Part shown: one piece after another, positions 3,896 to 52,138 of the stretch
How positions within the stretch are numbered: the stretch's first letter is position 1
Layout of the letters: the number at the start of each line of letters is the position of its first letter
Assembly: GCA_938014335.1 (NCBI GenBank)
Contig: CALLRP010000006.1
Span: forward strand, 14,226 to 78,225
Length of the DNA stretch: 64,000 nt
Direction: 5' to 3'
Source of the DNA: an uncultured bacterium
GTDB taxonomy: Bacteria; Hydrogenedentota; Hydrogenedentia; Hydrogenedentales; Hydrogenedentaceae
Notes under the pieces: model-generated
Told to the model about the DNA's origin: nothing
What the model saw: only the letters and a program-made list of their open reading frames with translations
Database searches by the model: none
Translations under genes and position numbers: made by a program

Positions 3896-4684
3896 ATGCC
3901 AGATATAGACATACAACATCGCAGGGTAGGGGTTATTATGCTTCATGGTTCCTGTTCCATGAGTTGTCTATTTTGTATTACAGAGAATAGCATTACAGAA
4001 ATGTCTCCAGAACAGGTAAAAACCATTTTAAAGCTTATGAAAGAGCAAGAAATGGAAAGTGTTGTTTTTGGAGGAGGCGAGCCACTACAATGGAATCATT
4101 CCTTATCGGATTCCATAAAATTAGCGAAATCTATGAGACTTCACACACAGGTAGGCACAAACGGTGTGGGATTAAATCCAGATGTAATTCAGAATTTAAA
4201 TGCAGACCGATATGTGCTTCCTATGGATTCTATCAATCCGCAAATTCATAATTATCTCAGAGGAGGATTCCGAAAACATTACGATATAATAAAAAAAAGA
4301 TTGAGATATTTAACAGAAATAGGGGTGCCTTTTACTATTTCCACAGTTGTTTGTAGGATTAATTTAGATATGTTAAATGAAATAACAGCTTTTCTATTAC
4401 ATTTGTGGGAAAAAGGAGCTCGAATCCATGCCTGGCATTTATATCGTTTTCTACCCATGGGTAGGGGTGGATTGAAAAACGCCAGCATGCTTCATATTAC
4501 CAAAGATGAATATTTTGAGAAAACGGAAGAGATAAAGCAACGTGGAATGCCTTTCCTCGTGTATCGTCGACCTAATATGCAGTTGTCAAAAGAAGTAGAT
4601 TTTTTTTGGGCGGAAGCAGGAGAAGTCAAAGTCGGCAGTCAGGTATGGGAAAAGAAGAATTCTACTTATTGTCTGTGTGAATAA
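3896..4684 (+). CDS. Small radical SAM enzyme (activase-sized)
   Basis: 262 aa. CX3CX2C sits very near the N-terminus (HGSCSMSCLFC; C20/C24/C27), with a GGGEP SAM-binding motif (VVFGGGEPLQW). Its ATG is 4 nt after the stop of the preceding rSAM gene. Confidence 0.75.
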   Translation: MPDIDIQHRRVGVIMLHGSCSMSCLFCITENSITEMSPEQVKTILKLMKEQEMESVVFGGGEPLQWNHSLSDSIKLAKSMRLHTQVGTNGVGLNPDVIQNLNADRYVLPMDSINPQIHNYLRGGFRKHYDIIKKRLRYLTEIGVPFTISTVVCRINLDMLNEITAFLLHLWEKGARIHAWHLYRFLPMGRGGLKNASMLHITKDEYFEKTEEIKQRGMPFLVYRRPNMQLSKEVDFFWAEAGEVKVGSQVWEKKNSTYCLCE

Positions 4685-10523: not shown

Positions 10524-10988
10524 ATGAAATTTAATCGGAAAAAGAATCATAGTAAGTTGGTTAAGGCAACCATAGATTTGACCCCTCTCATTGATGTTGT
10601 ATTCCAATTACTTCTCTTTTTCATGTTAACATCCACTTTTGTGGTTCAGGCATCAATTCCTGTTGAATTATCAAAAAGCGATTCTTCGGAGCAGTTAGAA
10701 CAAAAAGATGCAACCGTAACATTAGCCTATGGTGAAGGTGGACCCGATAATCAGGGTGAGATTTATTATACAGAAGATAATGAAGTCCCTATTAAAAGCT
10801 GGTACGAATTAACGAGGGCAATGGAAAGTTTTTATGAGAGAAGACCCGAAGGACTTTTACTAATTCGTCCTGATCGTCGGGTTCCTACAGAAAGATTAGT
10901 TAAAGTACTTGGAATTGCCAATTCTGTCGGAATTAAGCATTACGGAATTGCAGCAATTCCTTCAACTACTGAAGAAACAACTCAATAA
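10524..10988 (+). CDS. ExbD/TolR-family biopolymer transport protein
   Basis: 154 aa. N-terminal TM with the family signature IDLTPLIDVVFQLLLFFM. The start is 1 nt after the stop of the preceding gene. Confidence 0.85.
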   Translation: MKFNRKKNHSKLVKATIDLTPLIDVVFQLLLFFMLTSTFVVQASIPVELSKSDSSEQLEQKDATVTLAYGEGGPDNQGEIYYTEDNEVPIKSWYELTRAMESFYERRPEGLLLIRPDRRVPTERLVKVLGIANSVGIKHYGIAAIPSTTEETTQ

Positions 10989-11004
10989 CAAACGGATTAA
11001 GAAA

Positions 11005-11988
11005 ATGAAAAGGCGCACGCGGAAATCCGTGCGCAAGCACGCCAAAAATTATGAGATGGAAAAAGATATTCAGGAGCCCCCTGATTTTTCTAAAATCTCG
11101 GAAGCTTTATCTTTGCCCCAAATGGGAGAAGAATCCTTTCAATATGCTATTTCTACAAGTCCCCAAGGGGATTTGCTAGTCCAATTAAAGAAGGACCGCA
11201 ATCGTTTTTTTAAAACAATCATTTTTGCTCTTCTTCTTCACCTTTCTGCAGTTACTCTTTTCAAAATTGTAGTTTATATTCCTCGTTCTGACCTCCAATA
11301 TCTCGATATTCGCGTTGTTCAAGCAGATATAGATGAAAGTTATAGGCCTACTTTAATCTCGCGATTAAGATTATCAGAAAATTTAGGAAGTGATGATGTC
11401 CTTAATATAAATGAATTAAAACAATCAAGCAGTTTTGAGCTCCCTAAAATCGAGTTTGAAGAATTAGAAAAGTTGAGACTTCGTAGAACATTGGTTGAAG
11501 AAGAAACGATTCCTACTCCTTTATCGGAAGAATACAAGGATAGTTGGGCACAGTTCGGTGCAGGTATTAATCGAATTAGAGAATCTATAAGCGCATTAAG
11601 TCCTTTTGCACCAGCAACAGGAATAAAAGAGAAACAGTCAAACGATAATTCGGGTGCTCCACTGATAAAACAAAACATTGGAAATGGTATAGAAATTATT
11701 TTCCGTTGGATAAATCCTCCGTATGACAGGACCGTTTTGTTTTTCCCAGGTCTATTAGAAATGTCAAGGAAGTCTATGGTAGATGAAGATAAAGATTATG
11801 ATTTTATGTTAACAGTATTATCTGATGGGACTGTTACAAGAGTAATAGACTTGAATATAATTGAGGATGAAATATCAAAGTATATAGAAGAAGAAATGAG
11901 TAAAATTCGATTTGAACCCTTGATCAATCCTGATATTGGGGAACAACAAGTAACAATTCGCTATCGCATATCAAAGGCTTTGTTATGA
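11005..11988 (+). CDS. TonB/TolA-like energy-transducer candidate
   Basis: ATG at 11005; the track start at 10909 would overlap the ExbD gene by 80 nt. It has a basic N-terminus, one TM (IIFALLLHLSAVTLFKIVVYI), a long polar linker and a beta-rich C-terminal ~80 aa. Its position after ExbB-ExbD fits a TonB/TolA role, but the sequence-level match to TonB_C is weak. Confidence 0.5.
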   Translation: MKRRTRKSVRKHAKNYEMEKDIQEPPDFSKISEALSLPQMGEESFQYAISTSPQGDLLVQLKKDRNRFFKTIIFALLLHLSAVTLFKIVVYIPRSDLQYLDIRVVQADIDESYRPTLISRLRLSENLGSDDVLNINELKQSSSFELPKIEFEELEKLRLRRTLVEEETIPTPLSEEYKDSWAQFGAGINRIRESISALSPFAPATGIKEKQSNDNSGAPLIKQNIGNGIEIIFRWINPPYDRTVLFFPGLLEMSRKSMVDEDKDYDFMLTVLSDGTVTRVIDLNIIEDEISKYIEEEMSKIRFEPLINPDIGEQQVTIRYRISKALL

Positions 11989-20278: not shown

Positions 20279-22450
20279 CTAATAACCACGGGGAATATTA
20301 TTTAAATACTCGCTGTACCGGCAAAGGTGGACTATAGCTTTTGCCATCTGAGTAGGATTCTGGAAAACGTAAATATTTAATTCCTCAAGTTTTTCTAAAA
20401 CAGGATTGGTATTTTTCCCATGCGAAATGATTGTTGTATCCGAGGCGACAACAATAGGTTTCTGATAAGTATTCATTAATTTTGCAATTGTTTCCGCATC
20501 TTTTAGCTCAAATTGTGTTCCAATTTCTGATAATTTATCCAGACCTAAATTCTTTGCCCGTTCGGAATTTTGAAATCGCACATACGCACTTGCGATATAA
20601 CCTATTCCTAAAATGACGAGAATATCAATCTCATCATCCTGTATTAGGATCTCCATAGATTTTTTGAATAATTCCACATCTGTTCCTGCCACCATATCTA
20701 CGGGATTAGTTCGATTCCACCATTTAGGCATGATTTGGTCTAATTTCTGAAGTATGTTTTCAGATAAGGGAATCACATTCAATCCCGCCTTGCTACAGAC
20801 ATCAGCGGTAATAACCCCCCACCCTCCTCCTTGTGAAAGAATCCCCACATTTCGCCCCCTGGGAAGTGGGACATTAAAAAGTAAATGGGCTGTTTCTACC
20901 GCTTCATAAACATCCTCAGTCAAAATAGCACCCTGTTGAACACATACTCCTTGAAATAGGCGATAATCGGTTGCTAATGCCCCTGTATGTGAAGATGCAG
21001 CACGAGACCCTGCCTGAGTTTTGCCTCCTTTTAATAGGATAACAGGTTTTTTCTTCGTTACTTTTTTTAATTCATTGAAAAATAGACGTATATTTTTGGC
21101 ACTTTCAATATATGAAAAAACTACTTTTGTTTTGAGGTCGTTACCTAAAAAGTTTAGATAATGATAATTTTTTATCACTGCTTCATTTCCGGTGCTTATA
21201 AATCGTGATACTCCTAATTTATGTTGCATTGCCCAACTCATTACAGTGTTCCCAATATTCCCACTTTGAGAAAGTATTCCTAATCCACCGGCTTGAGGGT
21301 ATCTTCCTATCATAGAGCAATATAGTTTCATTGGGTCAGGACTTACTACACCGGCACAATTAGGACCAATTAAGTATAAATTATTTTCTTTTGCCATCTT
21401 TTCCAGTTCTTCCTGTGCAGATTGAGCTTCTTTATCTGCTAACTCTCCGAAACCTGCTGTAATGACTAAGACAACTTGAATTCCCTTTTCAATACACTCT
21501 CGAACGCAGGGCTGAACAGATTGTGGAGGGACAATAATAACCGCTAAGTCCACTTTTTCGGGTAAAGATGAAATAGAAGGATAGCAAGGAATATTTAGGA
21601 CTTCACTTCGTTTTGGGTTAACACCATATATTTTCCCTGTATATCCACCTTCTAAAGTATTGAATAGAACACGAAATCCCCATTTTAGTGACTTGTCTGT
21701 TATTCCCACAATGGCAATACTTTGGGGTTCAAATAATTTTAATAATTTATTGAAATCAATAGATGTATCTTCTGCTTCCAAGTTGTTTGTTGAATCGCTC
21801 CCTGTTATTGCAAGAGCATCTACTGCGATAGCTGTATTGTGATGTATTAAGATGGGATTTAATTCAAATTGTGTAATTTCTGTTTCATTCGATAAAAGAT
21901 TTTCAATAGATTTTATTACTTGAAAAAGTTTTTGTATATCAACAGGAGGGTCACCTCGAAAAGAATAAAAGATTTTATTGCAGCGTAGTTCGTTAATCAT
22001 TTCCTGCAAGTCAATTTCATTTATGGGTGCACAACGAAAGGATACATCTTCAAGAACTTCTACGAGAATACCTCCTATTCCAATATAGACACATATACCA
22101 TATTCGTTATGTTTCATTCCCCCCATGATGAGTTCTCGTTTCCCGTAAATATGTTTTTGTAATAAAAATCCCGATAATTTAAAGTTTTTTGAATTGTCCT
22201 GGATTTCATCAATTGCTTTTAATAAGTGTTCTTTCGATTTAATATCTGTCTTTACTAACCCAAAATCACTTTTGTGACCTATTCCTTCTACAATCCCTTT
22301 TAAGGTTATGGGGTAACCTAATGTTTTTGCAGAGGAAATAATTTCGTTAGTATCACTACACACATGAAAATCAGCCATTGGTATCTTATATTTTTCTAAC
22401 AAAGATAATGTCTGCACTTCAGATAATATTTGAGACAAATTCTCACTCAT
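20279..22450 (-). CDS. ADP-forming acyl-CoA synthetase (ACD family) with ATP-grasp domain placed N-terminally
   Basis: 723 aa. N-terminal ATP-grasp-like region (LEKYKIPMADFHV...GYPITLKG...HKSDFGLV). Then a CoA-binding Rossmann region (PQSIAIVGITDKSLKWG...GKIYGVNPK) and a ligase domain with the phospho-His loop (AASSHTGALA). Confidence 0.85.
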   Translation of the reverse strand: MSENLSQILSEVQTLSLLEKYKIPMADFHVCSDTNEIISSAKTLGYPITLKGIVEGIGHKSDFGLVKTDIKSKEHLLKAIDEIQDNSKNFKLSGFLLQKHIYGKRELIMGGMKHNEYGICVYIGIGGILVEVLEDVSFRCAPINEIDLQEMINELRCNKIFYSFRGDPPVDIQKLFQVIKSIENLLSNETEITQFELNPILIHHNTAIAVDALAITGSDSTNNLEAEDTSIDFNKLLKLFEPQSIAIVGITDKSLKWGFRVLFNTLEGGYTGKIYGVNPKRSEVLNIPCYPSISSLPEKVDLAVIIVPPQSVQPCVRECIEKGIQVVLVITAGFGELADKEAQSAQEELEKMAKENNLYLIGPNCAGVVSPDPMKLYCSMIGRYPQAGGLGILSQSGNIGNTVMSWAMQHKLGVSRFISTGNEAVIKNYHYLNFLGNDLKTKVVFSYIESAKNIRLFFNELKKVTKKKPVILLKGGKTQAGSRAASSHTGALATDYRLFQGVCVQQGAILTEDVYEAVETAHLLFNVPLPRGRNVGILSQGGGWGVITADVCSKAGLNVIPLSENILQKLDQIMPKWWNRTNPVDMVAGTDVELFKKSMEILIQDDEIDILVILGIGYIASAYVRFQNSERAKNLGLDKLSEIGTQFELKDAETIAKLMNTYQKPIVVASDTTIISHGKNTNPVLEKLEELNIYVFQNPTQMAKAIVHLCRYSEYLNNIPRGY

Positions 22451-22701: not shown

Positions 22702-23007
22702 CTAATGTCTACTTCGTCGTTGACGCCTACGAATTTGCTGTTGTTTATTTTGATTTTGTCCTTTGTTTTCTTCTCCATCTCCTATCTTTTGATAAAATAA
22801 GGCTTCTTTATCGGAAAGTTTTTTGTTTTGTATCATGTTTTTAATCTTTTCAATGTCAGTTACTGTTCCCGTCGTTTTTATGTCTGTAGAAACTGAAGAT
22901 ATTTCTGTTTCTGGTTTTCCCGGTAAAGTCTGATAAATGAAAATAGCCACAAATATAATAGTGTAAAGTATTGAGACTGTTAAGAATATAGCATCATTTT
23001 TTTTCAT
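22702..23007 (-). CDS. Small single-pass membrane protein, last gene of the AmmeMemoRadiSam-linked operon
   Basis: 101 aa. N-terminal TM (IFLTVSILYTIIFVAIFIY) and a basic Q/R-rich tail. The start overlaps the stop of the upstream 1187-aa gene by 14 nt (ATGaaaaaaaaTGA). No clear SD. Confidence 0.5.
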   Translation of the reverse strand: MKKNDAIFLTVSILYTIIFVAIFIYQTLPGKPETEISSVSTDIKTTGTVTDIEKIKNMIQNKKLSDKEALFYQKIGDGEENKGQNQNKQQQIRRRQRRSRH

Positions 23008-26000
23008 GTTTATAGCACCGATTACATTGAATACAATCTATTTCTTCTATTTTTGAAATTCCGAGGTCACAGTGGTTTGGAAAAGTTCTCTGCCAGAAGA
23101 AAGAAAATATTCGTAGTGATTGAATTAAACTTAAAAATGCCCCTGTGGGACACAGCACCCGGCACCAGAAGCGGTTATATAAAAGGCTTCCGAACAAAAC
23201 AAAAATTCCAAAAATAGTTACGGTATTCGACATATCCAGCGTGAAAAAAGTAAGTAGTGGGTCAATACTTGCCATATTTGTCTCACGCAAAAAGAAATAA
23301 ACTAAAAAGAAAATAAATGCAAATATATACTTAAACTGCCTTGTCGTGTACCACATCTGCTTCGAAGGGGTAATTTTATTATTTATCCAGTTAAACTTAC
23401 TCATTAATTCTGACATGGCACCAAAGGGGCATAAATAACCGCAATATATATTCCCATTTATAAGAACCAGCAGAGGAATCCCTATGGTAAGTATGCAAGA
23501 AATAGATAAAGTAAACCGGAATTTATCAATAGATATTAGTTGAATAATGGAATAAATCCCGTATTGGATATTTAACCAAAAACCCAATACCAACATAACA
23601 GCAATTAACCAGATGATTCGAAGTACATCGTTGTGAAAGAAACGAAACACAATAGATAGGAGAATAAATATGATGAAGATGTAAACAGAATAAGTGGTTT
23701 GTGTGTGGTTTGCATGTGCAAGTTGTTGTATCTCAGAATAGCCCGTGCTTTTATCTTGAATTAATTTAGCAAACTCTTTCCCAGCAAATTGCACAGCCCT
23801 TTTTACTGCATCCGCTGTTGTTGTGGCACCGCTAACGGTATCTATTTCTGCAATCGTTTCGGGTTGAAATATATTTTTCCCTTTATAAAGAAAAAAATAG
23901 TCTTCTACCCGTGACAAATAGTCGGGTGTTTCATTAGATTGAATAACCCTGATATTTTCTATTCTACCTTCTTTGGAAACTTTAACGGCTATATCTATTT
24001 CACCACCGTATCCGATAACCTTAAATAACGAGGCAGTGGAAAAAATATAAAAAGTGTTCTCATTTTGATTTTCATCTTTTTTTGTAAACGAATAAAATCG
24101 TATTTTACGATTATCGGGAAGAGTCAATATCTCAGGTTTAATTTCCTCCCTTTCTGCGAGTTGTTGAGCAATTTGTGTGAAAACATCTTCGGGGAGAGGT
24201 ATTGTAGAACGATAATATATTTCTGTAGAGATAAAGGTTAGTATAAGAATAGGAACCAATGTATATCCAAGTGTTCTACCCCAAAGTGATGAAACACAAA
24301 ACAAAGTTTTTTGGAGTAATGGAATAAATAAAAGGACAAGAATTAGATAGAAAAAAACAATTCCTGCTGAATATTGAAGTCCCCACAGAGGGAGCAATAA
24401 CAATGGAAATACAAAGGCACCTATACCGGCTCCCAAATGATCGCATCCCTCTAAATATACTGCTAAACGAGAGGTGGTTAATTCTTTATCAGAGATTTCG
24501 AGGAATACAGAAAGCAAGAAACCTAACACAAAACCCCATAGAAAGAAAATAGCAAGATATGTGTAAAAATGAATAGATGGTATTTGAAATATGATGATTG
24601 TAAAAAATGCACATGTACAAGACAGGCAAAAGGCAATGAAAAAAGGCAATCGGCTTTTTTTGTTTACATAAAAAAGATTAAAAAAAATGGGACTTATTGA
24701 AAGTCCCAGCATAAAAAGTGAGGATAAAAGCCCCAAATAAGTGGATAATGAGCCATAAGTATATTGAAATTGAATAAAGAGCAGAAGAGAAACTCCCATG
24801 CCCACAAGTCCAATGATAAAAATGGCAAAGCAAGTTTCAGCAATCGAATAAGTGTATTTTTGTATTCTTTTTCGGAGCGACCTCTTTTTATATATCCATC
24901 GAAATAGGATAAAACTCAATGGGAAGCATATAAAAAGAAAAAGAATTATTCTTTTAATGATTATAATTTTTTCTAATAATCCTGAATACCCATGTTTCCA
25001 GAGATAAAAGAGATTACTGTATAAAAATCCAAGATATTTATTTTCAGAATTGATGAGGTAATTGCTGTCGGTAACTTTTTTAATTTCTTCATACCGATTT
25101 TTTTGAAAAATGATTCTATCCGGTGGATACAAGTCTCTCACAAGATTGGGTCTAATTTCGGGCAATTGTTGTGCAATCGTAGTTAGTCGCTGTTCCAGAG
25201 TGGGGACATGCTCACTCAAAGGATGTGTTAAAGAACCCAATAACCATGTTTCCTCCCCGGGTTTCAGCACAGTAACTTTAAATACTTGATGAAAAGTGAA
25301 AAATATAGAGGCTCCAAGGGTTGCAATTTCCCCCCCTAAAAAATTTTCACCTCCTGACATACGAATACCCACTATTCCTCTATCCGCGAGGCAATTCTTC
25401 AACAAGTTAAAAAAACTATCGGTGAGATATTGATTTGAATTTATCGTTTGAGGGTCACCTGTATACACCAAAATAATATCGAATTTTTCATTTGTAGTTG
25501 TTAAAAATAATCGAGGTTCCGTTTGTGGAAATATCAATTTGTTTGAAGTATTTAAAGATTTTTCTTGTAGTAGCGGGATAATTTTTTGGGATAATTCAAA
25601 ATCAAAAGGTATCCACAAAATTTTCTCTATTTCCTTAATTTTTATGAGGTAGGGTAATATATAAATAAAAGGTTCACCAATTAATAGAAAATTTTTTGCA
25701 TCATTTTTTTGAGCAAGGAAGGTGGACAAGAAACGCAAACCATATTCCTGATTTGGGAAATTTAAGGCAGGTTTAAGATTTCTCAACAAAATAAACTGGG
25801 TATTATCAAATCCATATAAATATTCCCCCTTCTGGGTGATAATTTTACCACCTAAATTTTCACTTTTAGTAAGATTTTCCCAGTGTGTTTTATTTTCCCA
25901 TGATTCTAATGTAAATGCTAAAAACAGAAACAATGGCAAAAGAAAAACAACAATAACTTTTTTAAATAAAACATAGTGAGATAGGGAAAAAGAGGAAGTA

Positions 26001-26557
26001 ATTAAAAAAAAGGAAACGAGACAGAAAGGAATCCAGTGAGAAAGACCGAAATATATGCACAATGAGGTAATAAGTCCACCTAACACAGCCCCGAAAGCCT
26101 CATAAGCGTATATAGAGCGAACAATTGTAGAAGGGGTAGGAATATTTTGTGAGTTCGATGTTAAATTTTGCTCCCACCAAAGTGTGCAGTGGGTAAATAA
26201 GAAACCTGTAAGAAAACTTAATCCTGCAGTTGTCAAAGAAGAATACAATACGAGGGTAGGAATATCAAATATTTCATAAGAAGGAATACCAGAAATATAT
26301 CGAGCACTGCGGATAAAAAAATGTGCACATAACCAGGCAGGAATATAAATAAGAGATGTTATTGTTAAGTATTTAAACTGTTTATAAAAAAGACGCCCTA
26401 CAAGGGTTCCGGGGATAATCCAGATAAACCAGAAAAAATAAAGAATACCCAGGGCAAATTCATTTTCTTCAATACAATGAAGGAAATCACGCACAAGGAG
26501 GGCTTGTGCGGTAATCGAAAACGCTCCTAATGCAATGGGTAATAGAAACTTTTTCAC
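22994..26557 (-). CDS. 1187-aa polytopic chimera: spermidine-synthase-like module + FMN-binding domain + NapH/NosR-like CX3CP iron-sulfur membrane module
   Basis: The GTG start shares GTGA with the upstream stop.
- Residues 1-215: TM bundle.
- About 285-445: SpeE-like fold (FDIILVYTGDPQTINSNQYLTDSFFNLLKNCLADRGIV) with a degenerate Gly motif (LLIGEPFIY).
- About 530-780: second TM bundle.
- About 830-925: FMN_bind domain with the flavinylation-type motif DTVSGAT (nt 23822-23842).
- About 955-1150: TM helices carrying CGYLCP (nt 23426-23443) and CRVLCP.
- C-terminus: C-x11-CIQCNRC. Confidence 0.8.
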   Translation of the reverse strand: MKKFLLPIALGAFSITAQALLVRDFLHCIEENEFALGILYFFWFIWIIPGTLVGRLFYKQFKYLTITSLIYIPAWLCAHFFIRSARYISGIPSYEIFDIPTLVLYSSLTTAGLSFLTGFLFTHCTLWWEQNLTSNSQNIPTPSTIVRSIYAYEAFGAVLGGLITSLCIYFGLSHWIPFCLVSFFLITSSFSLSHYVLFKKVIVVFLLPLFLFLAFTLESWENKTHWENLTKSENLGGKIITQKGEYLYGFDNTQFILLRNLKPALNFPNQEYGLRFLSTFLAQKNDAKNFLLIGEPFIYILPYLIKIKEIEKILWIPFDFELSQKIIPLLQEKSLNTSNKLIFPQTEPRLFLTTTNEKFDIILVYTGDPQTINSNQYLTDSFFNLLKNCLADRGIVGIRMSGGENFLGGEIATLGASIFFTFHQVFKVTVLKPGEETWLLGSLTHPLSEHVPTLEQRLTTIAQQLPEIRPNLVRDLYPPDRIIFQKNRYEEIKKVTDSNYLINSENKYLGFLYSNLFYLWKHGYSGLLEKIIIIKRIILFLFICFPLSFILFRWIYKKRSLRKRIQKYTYSIAETCFAIFIIGLVGMGVSLLLFIQFQYTYGSLSTYLGLLSSLFMLGLSISPIFFNLFYVNKKSRLPFFIAFCLSCTCAFFTIIIFQIPSIHFYTYLAIFFLWGFVLGFLLSVFLEISDKELTTSRLAVYLEGCDHLGAGIGAFVFPLLLLPLWGLQYSAGIVFFYLILVLLFIPLLQKTLFCVSSLWGRTLGYTLVPILILTFISTEIYYRSTIPLPEDVFTQIAQQLAEREEIKPEILTLPDNRKIRFYSFTKKDENQNENTFYIFSTASLFKVIGYGGEIDIAVKVSKEGRIENIRVIQSNETPDYLSRVEDYFFLYKGKNIFQPETIAEIDTVSGATTTADAVKRAVQFAGKEFAKLIQDKSTGYSEIQQLAHANHTQTTYSVYIFIIFILLSIVFRFFHNDVLRIIWLIAVMLVLGFWLNIQYGIYSIIQLISIDKFRFTLSISCILTIGIPLLVLINGNIYCGYLCPFGAMSELMSKFNWINNKITPSKQMWYTTRQFKYIFAFIFFLVYFFLRETNMASIDPLLTFFTLDMSNTVTIFGIFVLFGSLLYNRFWCRVLCPTGAFLSLIQSLRIFSFFWQRTFPNHCDLGISKIEEIDCIQCNRCYKHEKK

Positions 26558-28119
26558 AATTGCTCTTCGTGGAACACTTCTGCTTCAAAAACTTCAAATT
26601 CTGCACCTTCTTTATAGCCATCCGGAGATAATCCTGCTTTCATTGAAAGGTGTTCTAATGTCTGTTGTAAATTCCAATTTTGTTCTGGGGCTACCTGTGG
26701 TAAAAACAAAGCTTGATAATATCCTTTTTTCATAATTATCCCGTGTTTACCCAATTCAATTTCATTATAATGGTTTATCTTTCGTGGATGTGTAAGGAGG
26801 GATATGTCAATCTTAATCTTAGGCAACTCATCTTTTGTGATAGGGTAGAATCGTGGGTCCTTAAATCCAGCATTATACGCATTTTGTAAAACGGATTTAT
26901 ACATTGGCTTTGTTGCGAAAATTTCACCAATACATCCCCGCAAATCGTCATTTATTTTTAAGGTAACAAATGCGGCGCGAGGTGTTTTCATCGTCTCTGT
27001 TATTGTAATAGGTATTTCATTATCCAAAGGTAATTTGTTATGTTCCAGCACATATTCAAGTGTCCATCGTGCTAATTTTAATAAATCCTTTTTCTCTTCA
27101 GGTGTTAATGTCGTTGAAATATTCATAGATTTCTTTTCTCCTTTCTGCCATATTCCCGTAAAGGCAATACTAAAATAACTTACCGAATTCCGATAATCAT
27201 TTACAATCTCGCCGGATTGTTTATATTCAATAAGTTTGGTTTGTGTATTTTCGGGTAATAAATACATTAAAACTCCAATACCATAAGGACCACAAATAGT
27301 AATCCCTGTTTTTTCAATATAATCATAAAATCCCTTTACATCTCGTTTTTCAATATATTGATAAGCGACCATATCCAATTTTTTAAGATTTTCGGGTATA
27401 TTTTCATTAAAAGGTGTGTAATTGTAATTCGGTCCATAATGAGTAAAATCACTACTGGCAATTACCAATGTCTTCTCATCAATGTAGTTTTTTAATATTC
27501 GAGCTACCCTTTCTGTGGTTTCGATATCCAATCTGCCACAAATTAGAGGAATTAATTTAAATTCTCCTTTAAAATATTGTAACAGTGGTAATTCTATTTC
27601 AACGCTATGTTCTCCTTGTTGTGCTAAAGGAACTTCCTTGAAATATGGATATTTTTTTAATTCTTGTATTGTTTCTGTATCAAGAGGTATCTCGCCCATA
27701 GGTGTTTCATAACAATCAACGGAAGGGAGACTTATGAGATTTTCCAAAGATGCTCTATGGCTTGTCCCTAAAATGATTATCCGAGAATATGTCCCTTTCT
27801 CTGTTGTTTTAATTCCTCTGCATGCAGTTAAACCTGAATACATATAACCCGCATGAGGTAAAATAAGTCCGATTACATGTTCAATAAGCTCCCCATCTGC
27901 TTTATTAAACATTTCTGAGATTTGTTGTTTTAATTTTTCTGGATTTGCATCATACCATTGACCTGCAATTAAAGATTGATAAACTTTTTTAGACTCCCTA
28001 TGATTTTCTTGACTTAAAGATAAATTATCCCCACATGCAAATGGAAGAGTGACGATAAACAATAGAAAAAGAGTAATATTTGAATAATTTCTCATCCAAT
28101 AACCCCTTCTTTTTTTCAT
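26554..28119 (-). CDS. Fused AmmeMemoRadiSam system protein B (Memo) :: protein A (AMMECR1) with N-terminal signal/anchor-like segment
   Basis: 521 aa.
- Memo part, about 48-322: AGQWYDANPEKL, LPHAGYMYSG, SSDFTHYGPNY.
- AMMECR1 part, about 338-521: DLRGCIGE.
- N-terminus: MKKRRGYWMRNYSNITLFLLFIVTLPFAC(29)G, i.e. basic, then hydrophobic, then Cys.
- An alternative start at M9 is preceded by GAAGGGG. Confidence 0.88.
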   Translation of the reverse strand: MKKRRGYWMRNYSNITLFLLFIVTLPFACGDNLSLSQENHRESKKVYQSLIAGQWYDANPEKLKQQISEMFNKADGELIEHVIGLILPHAGYMYSGLTACRGIKTTEKGTYSRIIILGTSHRASLENLISLPSVDCYETPMGEIPLDTETIQELKKYPYFKEVPLAQQGEHSVEIELPLLQYFKGEFKLIPLICGRLDIETTERVARILKNYIDEKTLVIASSDFTHYGPNYNYTPFNENIPENLKKLDMVAYQYIEKRDVKGFYDYIEKTGITICGPYGIGVLMYLLPENTQTKLIEYKQSGEIVNDYRNSVSYFSIAFTGIWQKGEKKSMNISTTLTPEEKKDLLKLARWTLEYVLEHNKLPLDNEIPITITETMKTPRAAFVTLKINDDLRGCIGEIFATKPMYKSVLQNAYNAGFKDPRFYPITKDELPKIKIDISLLTHPRKINHYNEIELGKHGIIMKKGYYQALFLPQVAPEQNWNLQQTLEHLSMKAGLSPDGYKEGAEFEVFEAEVFHEEQL

Positions 28120-28314
28120 AACATCATTATATTAAATTTTAACCTGCCCATGGAGAGGATTTCGTTTGAGAAAGGCCGAAATTGTTTTTGTTTTTTGGCA
28201 ATTTTTTTTTGTGTAATAACGGTATTGCATAAGTCTGCCGAACCAAGGATGGTTTTTTTATGCCATATTTGGCAACTACCACGGCCAGAATAGATGATAA
28301 AAATTTTCTCCGAT

Positions 28315-29292
28315 TTATTGCCATATCCCGTATATCTCCTTGTTACATTTGGGACATTTTCCATTTGAAATATTGTTTTGGAGAATGTTATATCCATATC
28401 TTTCAATCAATAAAATTTTACAGAATGGACAGTAAGTATTTGAACTTTCACGGTGTATAATATTGCCAATATATACGAATTGCAATCCCTCATTTTGTGC
28501 AATTTGGCGAGCTTTCAGAAGCGTCTCTAAAGGAGTAGGGAAGAGGTGGGTCATTTTATAACGGGGATAAAACTGGGAAAAATGGAGTGGAGTATCCTTC
28601 CCCAAATTTTTCGCTATCCATGCAGATAATTGTTGTAAGTCTTCATCTTTATCATTCAAGGTGGGAATGACTAAATTCGTGACTTCAAGTTCAACGCCTG
28701 CATTTTTAGTCAGTTCTAAAGTTTTTAAAACAGGTTTTAACGAGCCATCACATACGGTTCTGTAAAATTCCTCTGAAAAACCTTTTAGGTCTATATTAGC
28801 GGAGTGAACAAAAGGTAGCAACCTTTTGTAGGGTTCTTCATTAATATATCCTGCGGTAACAAGAACATTTTTTAGTCCTTTTCCCGCGGATATTTTACAA
28901 CACTCATAAGTATACTCATAATAAGCCAATGGTTCGGTGTAGGTATAAGCGATAGAATGGCTCTTGTACTGAATTGCTAATGCTGTAATCTTTTCAGGGG
29001 CTATAAATTCAGTTTCATATTGATAAGGCTCCGCCTGTGATATTTCCCAATTCTGGCAATTTTTGCAGTGGAGATTACAGCCCACAGTAGCGAGGGATAA
29101 AATAGGTGTTCCAGGCAAAAAATGATAAAGCGGTTTTTTTTCAACGGGGTCAATATGAATAGAACAAGGATAACCATAAGTTACTGCATATAATTTTCCA
29201 TCTATATTAACCCGAATACGACACTCCCCTTTTTGTCCGTTCTCCAGCACACAATAACGGGGACAAAGTTCACATTTGACTAATGTAGTCAT
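28315..29292 (-). CDS. AmmeMemoRadiSam system radical SAM enzyme (PflA-like activase family)
   Basis: 325 aa. N-terminal Cys knuckle (CELCPRYC), rSAM motif GCNLHCKNCQNWEIS and a C-terminal zinc-knuckle (CPFC...CPKC). It lies adjacent to Memo::AMMECR1 on the same strand. Confidence 0.9.
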   Translation of the reverse strand: MTTLVKCELCPRYCVLENGQKGECRIRVNIDGKLYAVTYGYPCSIHIDPVEKKPLYHFLPGTPILSLATVGCNLHCKNCQNWEISQAEPYQYETEFIAPEKITALAIQYKSHSIAYTYTEPLAYYEYTYECCKISAGKGLKNVLVTAGYINEEPYKRLLPFVHSANIDLKGFSEEFYRTVCDGSLKPVLKTLELTKNAGVELEVTNLVIPTLNDKDEDLQQLSAWIAKNLGKDTPLHFSQFYPRYKMTHLFPTPLETLLKARQIAQNEGLQFVYIGNIIHRESSNTYCPFCKILLIERYGYNILQNNISNGKCPKCNKEIYGIWQ

Positions 29293-43131: not shown

Positions 43132-43243
43132 AATCTTTTATAAACAATTTTTAATTTTTTTCGTTATATGATATAACGATTGTAAGATATTTAACCTTCA
43201 ATTACATAATTATAAACAATTGTTACTATTTTGGGGTGAATTT

Positions 43244-44260
43244 ATGAAAAGGAAAAAATTGAGTTTTATTGCTATCTGGCTTCTTGTTTTAGTTGCTGGT
43301 TTTTCTTGTAAATCTACAAACAAAGAAGAAAAAAATAATATTCAGACCGAAATCACAAAAGAAGAAAGTATTTTCGACCTTGTCAGAGAGTCAGCTTTAT
43401 TAAATGTGATCGTGAGAAAGTTAGGTCATGAGTTCCCTGTATCTATTTCAGTAGTCAACGGTGCTGAAATACGATGGGTTCAAATTGATAAACCCGAAAA
43501 AGATGTCTCCGATTTAATTCGGCAAATATCTGAAAATACCAATATGGCTTTACAAGAAATAAACGATTATTATTTTTTATATCCGTTAGAACAATCTATA
43601 TATGAAAATCTAACGAAACTTTCACTAACAGAACTACCACAAAAATATTCTAATATAAAAATAACTGCAGGATTTGGTGCAGGGACAAAACTATTTAATG
43701 TCTTTAATAGCCTTAATTTTACTTATGGTTGTAATATTGTTGCAGATAACAGCCTTGCAGAATTACCTATTGGTGAACTGGTAGTTTTTCAAAAGCCTTT
43801 AAGTGTGGCATTAGAAATGATATTAAAAAGTGCCCGTATAGTTCCTCAAAGTATTCGTTGGTGCGCAAAAGATGATTTTATATTTTTTTATACTCCATTA
43901 AATATGAGAGTAGATCAACTTACTGGATGTAAGGTTTTTGATAACGAAGGGAAACAATCTATATTGGACAAAGAAGTAATCATTTCTCTACCAAAATCTG
44001 TTCCATTAAATAAAAAAGGTTCTCTTCCTTTTTATGATGGGGCAATGCCATTATCTAAAATTGCTCCTGTTCTTGCAAATCAAACAGGTCTTACAATAGA
44101 AATGATGGTCGGGACTGAAAACCTACCTATAAATCCATGTTATTTGAATAAAATAAAACTTAAATTAGCCCTTGATTTGTTAACTTTTCAGTGGTTAGAT
44201 ACATCGTATACATATTCTATTGAGAATGAAAAAATCGTTTTTATTAAATTGGGTAACTAA
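43244..44260 (+). CDS. Putative lipoprotein of unknown function, first gene of second Ton-like cluster
   Basis: ATG at 43244 gives MKRKKLSFIAIWLLVLVAGFSC (lipobox-like AGFSC). No family recognised. It is followed on the same strand by a TonB-like gene and an ExbB-like gene. Confidence 0.55.
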   Translation: MKRKKLSFIAIWLLVLVAGFSCKSTNKEEKNNIQTEITKEESIFDLVRESALLNVIVRKLGHEFPVSISVVNGAEIRWVQIDKPEKDVSDLIRQISENTNMALQEINDYYFLYPLEQSIYENLTKLSLTELPQKYSNIKITAGFGAGTKLFNVFNSLNFTYGCNIVADNSLAELPIGELVVFQKPLSVALEMILKSARIVPQSIRWCAKDDFIFFYTPLNMRVDQLTGCKVFDNEGKQSILDKEVIISLPKSVPLNKKGSLPFYDGAMPLSKIAPVLANQTGLTIEMMVGTENLPINPCYLNKIKLKLALDLLTFQWLDTSYTYSIENEKIVFIKLGN

Positions 44261-45254
44261 CTGGCAAAACAAATCATTGATGAATCTACACTATTTTATA
44301 ACTCAAAATAAAAGACAGATGTCCTATACTCAAAAAATATCTTTTTTTATATGGGTATCATTTATTGCTCATTTATGTGTATTGAGTATTTTTACAAAAA
44401 TCCCAACTTATAAAGGAATAATCTCCTCCATTCCGAAAGCAAAAACGATAAATATAGAATTTGTAAAACAAGAACCACAAAAATCTACAAAAAAGTTAGT
44501 AGAGGTAGTGGAACCTACAGATGAAATCCCTTCAAAAACAGAAAATATTGGAGAATTTAATTCTATATCTTCTGGTCCTATTAAAAAAGATGGAGATACT
44601 CACGGACCTCCTTTGATAGAAAATGAAAAAATTGAGACATTAGGTTCAGAGCATCAAAAAATACAGATTGCTAATGTTATACCGACTCCTGAAAAACAAT
44701 CGAAAACAAAATCTGTAGATTCTATTAGGAAGAGGAAAGAATCCTCCCATATAGATGTAATCCAAAAAGGACAGTTAAAAACAACACCCCCAAAACAAGA
44801 AGAGCCTCCAAAAGAGAGAGATACACTTATAAATAAAGAAAGCCCAGAAAAAATTGTAGCGCCCGAATATTTACCAAATACATTTACTAAACCGCAGGGG
44901 AAAATATATAATCAGGTTAAAAAGGAAGGAATACTTGGATTTGAGGCACTTCAAGACCAGTTAGCACCTTATTTGAAAGAAATCCAACGAAAAGTAGAAA
45001 AATACTGGATACATTATTTGTTAACACGATATTCTGGGACAAAACCTACAGAGGTTCTCATTGATTGTGAGATAAGTTCTGAAGGTAATATTGTTAAATT
45101 AGATATAATAGGGAACCCTGAAGACCCCCTGTTTGCAGGTATTTGTAAACAAGCCTTACAAAAATCTGCACCTTTTTCACCTTTTCCATTTCAGGTTCCC
45201 GATATATATCAAAATAAAAATCTACAAATACGGTGGACATTTAGTTTCATGTAA
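44220..45254 (+). CDS. TonB-like protein (start uncertain)
   Basis: One TM (ISFFIWVSFIAHLCVLSIF) and a long K/E/P-rich linker (PPKQEEPPKE). The C-terminal domain resembles TonB_C (EVLIDCEISSEGNIVKLDIIGNPEDPLFAGICKQALQKSAPFSPFP). Candidate starts are 44220 (TTG), 44226, 44280 and 44319. Confidence 0.6.
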   Translation: MRMKKSFLLNWVTNWQNKSLMNLHYFITQNKRQMSYTQKISFFIWVSFIAHLCVLSIFTKIPTYKGIISSIPKAKTINIEFVKQEPQKSTKKLVEVVEPTDEIPSKTENIGEFNSISSGPIKKDGDTHGPPLIENEKIETLGSEHQKIQIANVIPTPEKQSKTKSVDSIRKRKESSHIDVIQKGQLKTTPPKQEEPPKERDTLINKESPEKIVAPEYLPNTFTKPQGKIYNQVKKEGILGFEALQDQLAPYLKEIQRKVEKYWIHYLLTRYSGTKPTEVLIDCEISSEGNIVKLDIIGNPEDPLFAGICKQALQKSAPFSPFPFQVPDIYQNKNLQIRWTFSFM

Positions 45255-49985: not shown

Positions 49986-51182
49986 CTATTCAACGAGCTT
50001 ATTTAGATGATTACATACATATTTAACAGTATCTTCGGAAATTCCATCATAGAAAGGTAGGGCAAGCAATCGTGGATAAACATTATTTGCATTGGGACAG
50101 TTTGAATTTTCTATAAATACGGATACATTATCAATTACTTCTTCCCTCAATGCCGTATCAATTCCTCTAAAAAGAAGAGAACGACACATGTTTCGAGAAT
50201 CCATAGGGAGAATAACTACAAACATGTAATAAGATGGAGTACAATCGGGATGTACATAGGGAATATCAATTCTATCTGATAGAAATTTTCGATATAAACC
50301 GGCTATTTCATTCCGGTGCTCTACTCGTGAAGTAAGAAAGGGTAACTTTTCGATACCAATACTTGCTTGAAGAGGAGTAAACCGAATATTTTCAGGTGGA
50401 ACACTCTGAATCTTACGATATATAAACTCAAGTGATTTAAAAAAGAAAGGGAACAATCTAAAGAAAAGTATAGGATACATTAATCGTGAATTATAAAGAG
50501 TTTGTTCTAATTTTATCGATTTCGCTTTTTTAGTTATCTCCTTTGTGGTTAAAATTAATTTTTGGTTGTATTCCCCTACAAAATCAATAAGGGATGAATC
50601 CTTACTTACCAACATCCCCCCGCCATAAGTATTAATGGGTTTGGATATATCAAAACTAAAGAACCCCGCATATCCGAATGTCCCAGCATGCTGATTATTA
50701 ATTTTAGCCCCACATGCATGAGCGGTGTCTTCTATTACGGGAATATTATGTTCTTGTCCTATTTTACATAATTCTTCGATGTAGCAAGGATTTCCAAAAG
50801 TATGTAACGCGATAATGGCTTTGGTCTTTGAAGTTATAGAGTCTTGAACCAATTCAGGGTCAATATTTAATGTTTTGGGATTTATATCCACACAGATAGG
50901 TTTTAATCCCAATGACTGGATGATATTTACAAGTGCCTTTAATGTGAACGAAGGAATGATTACCTCATCATTCTTATGAAGCTTTAAATGTTGCAAAATG
51001 AGTTTGAGAGCCATCCGCCCCGATGGGAGAGCCACTGTGTATGGAGAGCCCAAAAAATCGCCAAACTCCCTTTCCCATCGAGAAACAATCCTATCATTGG
51101 ATAGTAAATCCAGAGAGGGATTTAGAACTTCTTTATATTCAGCAGGTAAAATATGTATCCATCTTCGTGGTATCATATACAC
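49986..51182 (-). CDS. DegT/DnrJ/EryC1/StrS-family (ArnB-like) PLP-dependent sugar aminotransferase
   Basis: 398 aa. PLP-lysine region FFSFDISKPINTYGGGMLV with the upstream motif IEDTAHACGA. Confidence 0.88.
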   Translation of the reverse strand: MYMIPRRWIHILPAEYKEVLNPSLDLLSNDRIVSRWEREFGDFLGSPYTVALPSGRMALKLILQHLKLHKNDEVIIPSFTLKALVNIIQSLGLKPICVDINPKTLNIDPELVQDSITSKTKAIIALHTFGNPCYIEELCKIGQEHNIPVIEDTAHACGAKINNQHAGTFGYAGFFSFDISKPINTYGGGMLVSKDSSLIDFVGEYNQKLILTTKEITKKAKSIKLEQTLYNSRLMYPILFFRLFPFFFKSLEFIYRKIQSVPPENIRFTPLQASIGIEKLPFLTSRVEHRNEIAGLYRKFLSDRIDIPYVHPDCTPSYYMFVVILPMDSRNMCRSLLFRGIDTALREEVIDNVSVFIENSNCPNANNVYPRLLALPFYDGISEDTVKYVCNHLNKLVE

Positions 51183-51205
51183 TCCAACTCTTAAAAGATA
51201 TAGTA

Positions 51206-52138
51206 ATGATTAATTTTATAAAAAGCAAAGACAAAATATTAAATGTTCTTCATATATCTGGTTTTGTCATTTTGATATTATTAACCTGTTTTGGAGTATA
51301 TCAGATACGAGAAGAAAATTTTGAAAATATAAAACATGTAATTGTAAATAGATGGGAACTATTCTTTTTAGCGTGTGTATTACGATTATTTGACTGGATT
51401 TTAGACTACTATTTGTGGCGATGTATGTTTAAAAATTTTTCTATCTCTTTCCCTTTTATAAAATCTATTTGGGTCTATCTCACTCAGGGTGCTGGAATTG
51501 TATTGCCGGCACAATTAGGCAGAGCATTAAGAGGATATATAATCACAAAAACAGTGAGCACACCCATCTCAAAAGCCATGACTGCGGAATTTTTGTTTTT
51601 ATTATGTGTTTTGGAAGGAGCATTTTTAGTTTTAATACTCTCATTAGCTATTTATACCAACACATTTGTATTGCCAATAATCCTTTCATTACTTTCATTA
51701 TTACTCTTCCCCTTTTTATTAAAATTCTTTAAACCTTTTCTGGCAAAGTTAAAAATAGGATTAACGGACAATGTAATTCGTCCTCCTTTTTTGATTTTAT
51801 TCTGCATAGGCTGTTCTATTGGGTGGGCAGTTAATGGCTTAATATTTTATCTTTTATTGGGAGGGAAAGAATCGGGACTATATTTAAGTCAAGTTGAAAT
51901 GATTGTTTTAGGAAACTTATTTTTAGCAATATGTAGTGGGATTCCTGGCGGAGTGGGAATTGTAGAAGCAACTATGAGTGTTTCATTACATTGGCTTCAG
52001 GTTCAATTACCCGAAATAATCCTTGTTATAGGGTTGTTCCGTATAATAACATTCTGGATTTGGATACCTTTAGGTTGGCTGGGTTTATTCCGTTTAAAAT
52101 TATATAAAAGTGTGGATTTAAAAGTAGATGTAGAATGA
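51206..52138 (+). CDS. Polytopic flippase-like membrane protein (UPF0104 / LPG-synthase-TM-like)
   Basis: ATG at 51206; the track start at 51023 would run antisense through the DegT 5' end. About 8 TM helices. The assignment rests on overall pattern only. ATGA overlap with the next gene. Confidence 0.6.
   Translation: MINFIKSKDKILNVLHISGFVILILLTCFGVYQIREENFENIKHVIVNRWELFFLACVLRLFDWILDYYLWRCMFKNFSISFPFIKSIWVYLTQGAGIVLPAQLGRALRGYIITKTVSTPISKAMTAEFLFLLCVLEGAFLVLILSLAIYTNTFVLPIILSLLSLLLFPFLLKFFKPFLAKLKIGLTDNVIRPPFLILFCIGCSIGWAVNGLIFYLLLGGKESGLYLSQVEMIVLGNLFLAICSGIPGGVGIVEATMSVSLHWLQVQLPEIILVIGLFRIITFWIWIPLGWLGLFRLKLYKSVDLKVDVE

Follow-up and report, generated by a model that had tools for sequence, protein, structure and literature searches.

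A conserved AmmeMemoRadiSam cassette with a predicted flavin-bearing membrane conduit and a small twin-arginine-type protein

Gene layout and conservation of the cassette

The 64,000-nucleotide stretch analyzed here (the window; contig CALLRP010000006.1 of an uncultured Hydrogenedentaceae bacterium) carries on its minus strand the three components of the AmmeMemoRadiSam system, together with a giant membrane protein and two small proteins. AmmeMemoRadiSam (TIGR04335 AmrA, TIGR04336 AmrB, TIGR04337 AmrS) was defined by comparative genomics. Memo and AMMECR1, whose conservation extends from bacteria to humans, are linked to human disease; we know of no biochemical function established for either protein, and of no substrate, redox partner, or cellular location known before for the bacterial trio. 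A preceding analysis based on the letters alone (the sequence-only reading) had described four minus-strand open reading frames (ORFs), and all of them are present at exactly the positions it gave: amrS, encoding the radical S-adenosylmethionine (SAM) enzyme (rSAM; 28315..29292, 325 aa), a Memo::AMMECR1 fusion (AmrB::AmrA; 26554..28119, 521 aa), the giant with a GTG start (22994..26557, 1187 aa), and a tail protein with a single transmembrane (TM) helix (22702..23007, 101 aa). The 4-nt GTGA overlap between the Memo::AMMECR1 stop and the giant start (26554-26557) and the 14-nt overlap between the giant and the 101-aa ORF (22994-23007) likewise agree with coordinates and sequence, and the divergent neighbor is a MarR gene followed by a resistance-nodulation-division (RND) efflux set, as claimed. 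Overlooked at that stage were the lipoprotein-type signal of Memo::AMMECR1, the split-off nature of the 101-aa ORF, and a further minus-strand ORF at 28139..28324, which encodes a 61-aa protein with a twin-arginine-type signal, overlaps the end of amrS at a conserved position, and occupies what had looked like a 195-nt gap separating amrS from the Memo gene. With this ORF in the gap, the five genes are spaced by -10, +19, -4, and -14 nt.

The rSAM, Memo, AMMECR1, FMN_bind (flavin mononucleotide, FMN), and NapH-type ferredoxin assignments made earlier are borne out by curated profile models above cutoff, the last of them through Fer4_5. AmrS scores 377.6 bits against TIGR04337 (cutoff 220; Radical_SAM 1.1e-17) and is 53-64% identical to its orthologs in related cassettes. 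It has the CX3CX2C radical SAM motif, reading CNLHCKNC, as well as an N-terminal CX2CX3C..C and a C-terminal CxxC..CxxC motif, and no signal peptide. The fusion protein scores 228.9 bits against TIGR04336 (cutoff 26; Memo 6.4e-61) and 166.5 bits against TIGR04335 (cutoff 99; AMMECR1 2e-50), with the Memo domain (residues 51-318, 27166..27969; PF01875, 206 bits) preceding the AMMECR1 domain (residues 347-516, 26572..27081; PF01871, 171 bits), whose LRGCIG motif is intact in the translation. Residues 1-28 (28036..28119) read in translation as a signal peptide ending in a lipobox-like LPFA ahead of C29. An N-terminal signal, lipobox, or anchor occurs in 114 of the 120 closest homologs, with lipoboxes such as VGSC, ISGC, VKGC, AASC, and LSAC in some orthologs and signal anchors in others; the fused family as a whole comprises more than 2,900 clusters. 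We predict the window protein to be a lipoprotein or signal-anchored. Its annotated ATG (window 28095-28119) has no obvious ribosome-binding site, and the second methionine, M9 (MRNYSNITLF...), is preceded by GAAGGGG and would give a signal more typical of lipoproteins, so translation may really begin 24 nt downstream of the annotated start.

Homologs were collected from one genome per species, with an alignment of 18 full-length giant homologs as query. Giant loci were recovered in Hydrogenedentota, Pirellulales, Sedimentisphaerales, Phycisphaerae, Kiritimatiellae, Nitrospirales, Thermodesulfobacteriota, and others, and the phyla harboring the cassette include at least the five named Hydrogenedentota, Planctomycetota, Kiritimatiellota, Nitrospirota, and Desulfobacterota. 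The order amrS, small ORF, Memo::AMMECR1, giant is retained in 18 of the 19 loci having upstream sequence, the trio lying directly upstream of the giant. All five reverse look-ups, starting from three fused Memo::AMMECR1 and two small proteins of the protein database, returned the same cassette with its 4-nt overlaps. Clustering of the ORFs of all loci revealed unrelated flanks and no further conserved gene around the cassette. Recurrence of the arrangement in several phyla, amid unrelated flanks, excludes chance adjacency. Each half of the giant also associates with the trio independently elsewhere: the FMN_bind/NapH-like half alone adjoins it in Thermodesulfovibrio-type loci (L026, L027), both halves are adjacent, separate genes in L030, and in L090 translation of a stand-alone N-terminal half (N-half) is coupled to that of an AMMECR1 lipoprotein. 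The link that the sequence-only reading proposed between the trio and membrane or periplasmic electron transfer is supported by this co-conservation in both directions, by the separate links of the two halves, and by natural domain fusions described below. Judged by gene order and overlaps, the five genes form one operon-like, functionally linked cassette conserved across phyla, a real, widespread, and previously unnamed variant of the AmmeMemoRadiSam system.

A decayed cassette (L083:6560-7010) retains only the last rSAM residues, beside a VapBC toxin-antitoxin pair, with a frameshifted small ORF and an intact Memo::AMMECR1 and 1399-aa giant. A short giant in L081, initially considered a variant, was rejected as an assembly gap (run of N). 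A stand-alone N-half-like protein of 750 aa (L089:6001-8253) lies at the end of a polysaccharide/O-antigen-type cluster with Wzy_C, Glycos_transf_4, GT4 glycosyltransferase, and epimerase genes, a context that hints at an envelope or lipid-linked substrate for the N-half module. Genes for ApbE (flavin adenine dinucleotide (FAD):protein FMN transferase) were seen ~6 kb from one cassette (L084:1-466) and ~2 kb downstream of a lone amrS on a Trichlorobacter plasmid (L086:8082-9098); both placements may be coincidence.

Architecture of the giant membrane protein

Along the giant, seven TM helices, a domain with the fold of spermidine synthase (SpeE), eight TM helices, an FMN_bind domain, five TM helices with two CX3CP motifs, and a C-terminal four-cysteine motif follow one another. 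The FMN_bind domain (residues 849-925, 23783..24013) matches PF04205 with 55.5 bits (E 9e-15; cutoff 22) and contains the ApbE flavinylation motif D906-x-x-S-G-A-T912, the threonine codon being at 23822-23824; D906, G910, A911, and T912 are invariant across 18 giant sequences. The adjoining NapH/NosR/PceC-like module (residues 950-1137, 23147..23710) is hit twice by Fer4_5 (PF12801; 47.2 bits, E 2.2e-12; cutoff 22) and weakly by the equivalog models for NosR (NF046105, 47.6 bits; cutoff 1000) and NapH/MauN (TIGR02163, 38.5 bits; cutoff 213). In the same 18-sequence alignment, both CX3CP motifs (C1039/C1043/P1044 and C1132/C1136/P1137) and the four C-terminal cysteines are invariant. The latter (C1163, C1175, C1178, and C1181, spaced CX11CX2CX2C; 23015..23071) constitute a candidate [4Fe-4S] site predicted to be cytoplasmic. 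As predicted, the last six TM helices of the giant and its FMN domain (TM15, FMN_bind, five TM) match the architecture of PceC, in which the FMN domain lies outside between TM1 and TM2.

An AlphaFold model of the giant was built from 18 homologs (mean predicted local distance difference test score, pLDDT, 77; predicted TM-score, pTM, 0.74), and all 50 PDB matches listed for it by Foldseek are SpeE-type enzymes with target TM-scores of 0.54-0.72. Since these matches are all of spermidine-synthase type, the assignment of residues 230-530 (24968..25870), predicted to be extracytoplasmic, to this fold holds. The earlier Spermine_synth label thus stands as a fold backed by structure comparison, but not as a profile match: PF01564 gives 17.9 bits (cutoff 22.9) and TIGR00417 24.4 bits (cutoff 249.55).

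Sidedness was derived from TM parity and lysine-plus-arginine (K+R) counts. Averaged over the giant family, inside loops carry 1.0-7.9 and outside loops 0-0.4 such residues, and hydropathy, AlphaFold secondary structure, and the family-averaged counts converge on one topology, in which the N-terminus, the CX3CP, and the four-cysteine motifs are predicted to be inside and the SpeE-fold and FMN_bind domains outside. Stand-alone N-half proteins from loci with exported rSAM enzymes (n = 19) keep the near-canonical motifs LLIGGG.(G/N)G, V(E/D)LDP, DGR.F, and FDVIIV(N/D).PDP, one of them scoring 69 bits on PF01564, and positive-inside analysis places the SpeE-fold domain outside in 19 of 20 proteins. 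The corresponding motifs of the window copy are degenerate (LLIGEPFIY, IPFD, TEPRLF, LVYTGDP), with G294 as the only conserved residue of the glycine-rich loop. In view of this loss, handling of a SAM-like ligand is plausible for the module in general and weak for this copy, for which docking is more likely.

The 101-aa tail protein matches no curated family and clusters with the C-termini of 1284-1399-aa giants from other phyla, that is, it corresponds to their C-terminal extension. A split between giant and tail with a 14-nt overlap also occurs in two other Hydrogenedentota contigs, L012 (junction read) and L082 (overlapping gene calls). A sequencing error in the A8 run at the junction was considered as its origin and rejected, as the same overlapping split is present in these two loci; by this comparison, the split is real and lineage-specific.

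Signals in cis and a proposed signal in trans among AmrS proteins

The 61-aa protein reads MAINRRKFLSSILAVVVAKYG...SSPWAG, and its ATG opens a 10-nt overlap with the end of amrS. A small protein occupies the same position in all 25 cassette loci with a readable junction. Profile searches yielded a family of 270 clusters, almost all exactly 60 aa in length and all annotated as hypothetical, with the consensus MTRRKFIQKLIKAGSAI.VG..WLAKKA.PRKFVRA.R.KKYPGSLKPL.DISKQSKWSG; no Pfam or NCBIfam model matches the small protein. The twin-arginine translocation (Tat) consensus [ST]RRxF[LIVM]x[KR] is found in 101 of 120 members, the window copy reading NRRKFLSS, and a C-terminal W[SAG]G in 119 of 120. 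The h-region is weakly hydrophobic and in this respect Tat-like (hydropathy of 1.65 vs 2.69 for the Memo anchors). Short variants in Thermodesulfovibrionales have neither YPG nor W-x-G.

Elsewhere, AmrS carries such a signal itself. The rSAM enzyme of L090 (L090:8248-9408, minus strand) shares 46% identity with its window counterpart and reaches 381 bits on TIGR04337; its N-terminal signal, LSRRGFLRAAGLAGAALAAPPAAA followed by SEHE, is recognized by the curated TAT model. With this sequence as the lead of a metagenome scan, 80 amrS loci were obtained, of which 34 encode an RR-type Tat signal at the AmrS N-terminus, 7 a KR/RK variant, and 5 a Sec-like hydrophobic segment; in 2 the signal is in trans on a small ORF, 30 have no signal, and 2 are cut by a contig edge. 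Among loci with at least 3 kb on each flank, those with RR-type signals are accompanied by Memo and AMMECR1 in 9 of 14 cases and by an N-half-like protein in 8 of 14, compared with 2 of 11 signal-less loci having those partners. Memo signals in loci with exported rSAM enzymes were called automatically in 15 of 21; five of the other six visibly bear a signal, and the sixth is cut by a contig edge. An exhaustive search of 1.84 billion representatives identified 1,458 rSAM relatives at E<=1e-30, with in-cis Tat signals in 18 of the top 150. All seven in-cis-Tat rSAM enzymes that were scored pass TIGR04337, and two of them also pass the curated TAT model (19.2 and 16.9). Twin-arginine amrS genes of this type were seen in L090, L091, L095, L096, L102, L108, L112, L121, L130, L142, L168, and others, usually alongside a signal-bearing Memo::AMMECR1 and a stand-alone TM-SpeE-TM protein; several of the signals end lipobox-like in 'PCLAAC'.

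The two arrangements are complementary. All 27 loci with a signal-less rSAM and an exported Memo (25 cassette and 2 metagenomic loci) have the small ORF, against none of the 38 in-cis-signal rSAM genes with downstream sequence; the ORF was not found at three canonical plasmid amr loci either. RRxF ORFs returned beside in-cis-signal rSAM genes by a lenient search were discarded as spurious, with neither h-region nor W-x-G. In hhalign, the small protein and the in-cis rSAM signals align with 89.5% probability over an 18-column signal region only; an origin of the small protein as the split-off N-terminus of a Tat-rSAM was on that ground rejected for the tail, which is presumably a separate element that binds a partner. 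Export of signal-less Fe-S or cofactor subunits by Tat hitchhiking is documented for hydrogenase HybO/HybC and for formate dehydrogenase (PMC10924467). This precedent, taken with the complementarity, leads to the proposal that the 61-aa protein probably escorts the folded rSAM enzyme through Tat. The situations are alike in that a signal-less folded cofactor enzyme is encoded beside a twin-arginine-bearing partner; they differ in that the carrier would here be only ~60 aa long, with a ~35-aa tail and without a cofactor domain, and the cargo would be a radical SAM enzyme.

Natural fusions bear on the location of the rSAM enzyme and on its redox partner. In P0289 and P0293, a single N-terminal anchor is followed by an FMN_bind domain with SGAT motif and then by rSAM, and no TM helix separates them. 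In P0264 and P0265, an anchor and FMN_bind precede five TM helices that hold both CX3CP motifs, then an extra (seventh) TM helix and rSAM, which TM parity would bring back to the side of the FMN domain. In P0285, a DsbD_2 module is joined to FMN_bind, NapH-like, and rSAM. The FMN_bind::rSAM fusions point to a direct redox partnership between the FMN domain and the rSAM enzyme and place the rSAM family and FMN_bind in the same compartment. Signal-less triple fusions of rSAM, AMMECR1, and Memo were also observed (P0301, P0302, P0330, P0340, P0348, P0365, and others; 918-1152 aa), as was the reverse order Memo, AMMECR1, rSAM (P0266, P0278). These triple fusions provide independent evidence that the three proteins act together.

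Proposed mechanism, alternatives, and known systems

We lean, with modest confidence, toward an extracytoplasmic, membrane-attached AmmeMemoRadiSam system with a NosR/PceC-like electron conduit, in which the rSAM enzyme is escorted via Tat. Electrons from a cytoplasmic donor or the quinol pool would cross the membrane through the four-cysteine/CX3CP NapH-like module and reach the covalently bound FMN on the outer face. Acting as a tethered flavodoxin, this FMN would reduce the [4Fe-4S] cluster of the rSAM enzyme and possibly the metal center of Memo as well. The signal-less rSAM enzyme would be exported in its folded state, riding in trans on the twin-arginine signal of the 61-aa protein, and would act jointly with Memo and AMMECR1 on a cell-envelope or exported substrate. 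The SpeE-fold membrane module, a conserved partner of all exported versions, may dock the enzymes or handle the adenosyl cofactor. A bolder version, with radical SAM chemistry proceeding outside the cytoplasm on an FMN-reduced AmrS that leaves folded through Tat on a 61-aa partner supplying the signal alone, receives or recycles its adenosyl cofactor via the conserved 14-15-TM protein with an outward SpeE-fold domain binding SAM-like ligands, and has Memo and AMMECR1 as envelope-modifying partners, we regard as unlikely.

A number of observations weigh against an exported system. For the window enzyme, export is something we infer, and we know of no extracytoplasmic source of SAM. Topology was assigned by simple hydropathy and positive-inside counts, and AlphaFold renders residues 695-743 as one long helix where parity needs two membrane crossings. 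On the 60-aa proteins, the curated TAT model TIGR01409 reaches 15.0 bits at best, in one member (cutoff 16.7), with no match in the others, and their very basic tail (net charge of about +8) could equally favor the cytoplasm. Five amrS relatives (L103, L118, L124, and L155, with L117 also classed here) have Sec-like rather than Tat-like N-termini, and Sec export would be incompatible with a pre-folded Fe-S enzyme; the strongly hydrophobic N-termini of L103, L118, L124, and L155 may serve either as export signals or as tethers to the membrane. In the polytopic NapH-like::rSAM fusions, no RR precedes the last TM helix, which makes the passage of a folded Fe-S domain hard to explain. The FMN/NapH module accompanies none of 14 in-cis Tat systems and is hence no universal requirement. 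Lastly, one Lentisphaerae locus (L004), the sole exception among the 19, has a giant homolog with no trio within 10 kb.

Alternatively, the system would be divided between two compartments, with a cytoplasmic rSAM enzyme docked on the NapH-like Fe-S face and working on a membrane-embedded or transported small molecule, the polytopic part of the giant passing this molecule outward, and lipoprotein Memo::AMMECR1 completing the chemistry there with electrons from the FMN domain; the 61-aa protein would then be a mere small membrane subunit. The window enzyme indeed has no signal peptide, SAM and Fe-S assembly are cytoplasmic, the conserved cytoplasmic four-cysteine motif of the giant could serve a cytoplasmic partner, and its 15-TM module is transporter-like; the strongly basic tail of the small protein and the absence of a call by the curated TAT model fit as well. 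Such a division is in our view rather improbable: it does not account for the strict complementarity of small ORF and in-cis Tat signals (27/27 vs 0/38), for the Tat-consensus N-terminus of the small protein with its weakly hydrophobic h-region, or for the fusions that put the rSAM family into the compartment of FMN_bind.

We see a still smaller chance that the 61-aa protein is itself the substrate, as the precursor of a peptide that is made on the ribosome and then modified post-translationally (RiPP) or of a peptide-derived cofactor, with its tail (Trp at -3, C-terminal Gly) modified by the rSAM enzyme in the cytoplasm before Tat export and matured outside by Memo, AMMECR1, and the flavin module. 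Gene clusters for peptide-derived quinone cofactors also contain the NapH-like MauN, and TIGR02163 spans both NapH and MauN; the small ORF is translationally coupled to the rSAM gene, and its conserved tail, which bears YPG and ends in KW[SA]G, shows no homology to the rSAM enzyme in any part. The enzyme itself, however, is orthologue-level in TIGR04337, as are those of systems that have no such peptide, and neither canonical loci nor any of those with in-cis-signal rSAM enzymes encode the peptide. Moreover, the short Thermodesulfovibrionales variants lack both YPG and W-x-G, and the cassette has no conserved peptidase or peptide exporter. That the giant is an unrelated respiratory or polyamine protein lying next to the trio by accident could be entertained from the single instance of the sequence-only reading or from L004; this is effectively refuted by order and start/stop overlaps conserved across phyla within unrelated flanks, by the agreement of the reverse look-ups, and by domain fusions joining the modules, and its probability is close to nil.

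Compared with known AmmeMemoRadiSam systems, all three components are here above curated cutoffs; they are adjacent and on the same strand, as in 18 related loci, and Memo::AMMECR1 fusions occur in canonical loci too. In contrast, amrBA precedes amrS in the canonical loci on Ideonella, Segatella, and Trichlorobacter plasmids, which contain neither giant nor small RRxF ORF, whereas the cassette order is amrS, small ORF, amrB::amrA, giant, with two extra conserved genes. The Ideonella proteins have no signals, unlike the exported AmrB::AmrA of the cassette, and the window fusion is only 27-32% identical to canonical ones. The Segatella hominis plasmid locus (L088:3408-4883) combines the canonical order with a Memo::AMMECR1 that carries a short Sec-type signal, MRKIVLVVLLTMCMMMEA; with no giant, no small ORF, and no rSAM signal, it represents a split-compartment arrangement. 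Pyruvate formate-lyase activase and other glycyl-radical activases are the closest functionally characterized relatives of AmrS; the window enzyme scores 51 bits on TIGR02493, far below the cutoff of 231.75, and no glycyl-radical enzyme is present in any locus.

The conduit resembles those of NosR/NirI/PceC (RdhC) and NapH-like systems in its outward FMN_bind domain, its [S/T]GA[T/S] threonine, six TM helices, and two CX3CP motifs (PMC5928378; PMC8238504), the outward orientation of the FMN domain having been demonstrated experimentally for PceC (PMC5928378). Service to an extracytoplasmic metalloenzyme would be a further likeness. The giant falls under the definition of 'NapH-like' in PMC8238504, that is, a multi-TM PF12801 protein carrying or adjoining an extracytosolic FMN_bind domain. 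It differs from NosR, which has two ferredoxin-type sites, in its single C-terminal four-cysteine motif, and no nos genes are nearby; it lies far under both the NosR and the NapH equivalog cutoffs, and its conduit is fused behind a 790-aa SpeE-fold polytopic module. The partner is also different, rSAM/Memo/AMMECR1 being unmentioned in PMC5928378 and PMC8238504.

Polytopic TM blocks around a SpeE-fold domain are shared with membrane-bound spermidine synthases and 'fused MFS/spermidine synthase' proteins (MFS, major facilitator superfamily; PRK03612-type), and the stand-alone N-half relatives come near the GGGxG, ELDP, DGR, and PDP motifs. Unlike in those enzymes, an outward position of the SpeE-fold domain is predicted for 19 of 20 proteins, linked polyamine genes are absent, and the window copy has neither the glycine-rich loop nor an equivalent of the Asp that binds decarboxylated SAM and amine.

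The cassette offers the trio a probable location, the outer face of the cytoplasmic membrane, and a probable dedicated electron supply in the form of a flavinylatable NapH-like conduit, with the FMN_bind::rSAM fusions naming the flavin domain as direct partner. To these it adds two conserved partners not named before, a 60-aa protein with a Tat-type signal and a polytopic protein with the SpeE fold, and it gives a concrete route to testing what Memo and AMMECR1 do. Should the rSAM enzyme be exported, it would be the first extracytoplasmic one found in our search and would raise the matter of how SAM and low-potential electrons are supplied to the periplasm. Part of the large 'NapH-like' flavinylated set with partners unknown (PMC8238504) would likewise gain one through the proposed system.

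The sequence-only reading had also taken the context to be undescribed, and our partial check agrees so far as it goes. Searches of the literature for AmmeMemoRadiSam, AMMECR1, or Memo together with NosR, FMN, Tat, or periplasm returned nothing relevant, and no report of an exported radical SAM enzyme was found in the searchable literature. Extended Memo contexts are reportedly covered by Burroughs et al. 2019 (JBC 294:10211), which lay outside the reach of this search and may already mention parts of the context. The study is cited in PMC7159879 as describing Memo-AMMECR1 systems. PF01875, PF01871, and PF01564 do not occur in the accessible part of the supplements of PMC8238504.

Around the cassette, no ApbE or Tat genes are present among the 20 ORFs scanned in the 64-kb window, and a promoter/terminator scan gave counts no different from chance. 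Four ORFs of 344-383 aa (43220-44260, 44220-45254, 56382-57533, and 10909-11988) are without a Pfam match at E<=1e-5. On the 3' side, a gene for an ADP-forming acyl-CoA (acetyl-CoA) synthetase-like protein (20279-22450, minus strand) directly follows the cassette; it is syntenic in the Hydrogenedentota loci L012 and L082 and not in other phyla, which is probably mere lineage synteny. Two further, unrelated radical SAM ORFs are located at 3896-4684 and 52135-53130, both on the plus strand, the latter coming after ORFs for a membrane protein resembling LPG_synthase_TM (51023-52138) and for an aminotransferase of the DegT family (49986-51182, minus strand).

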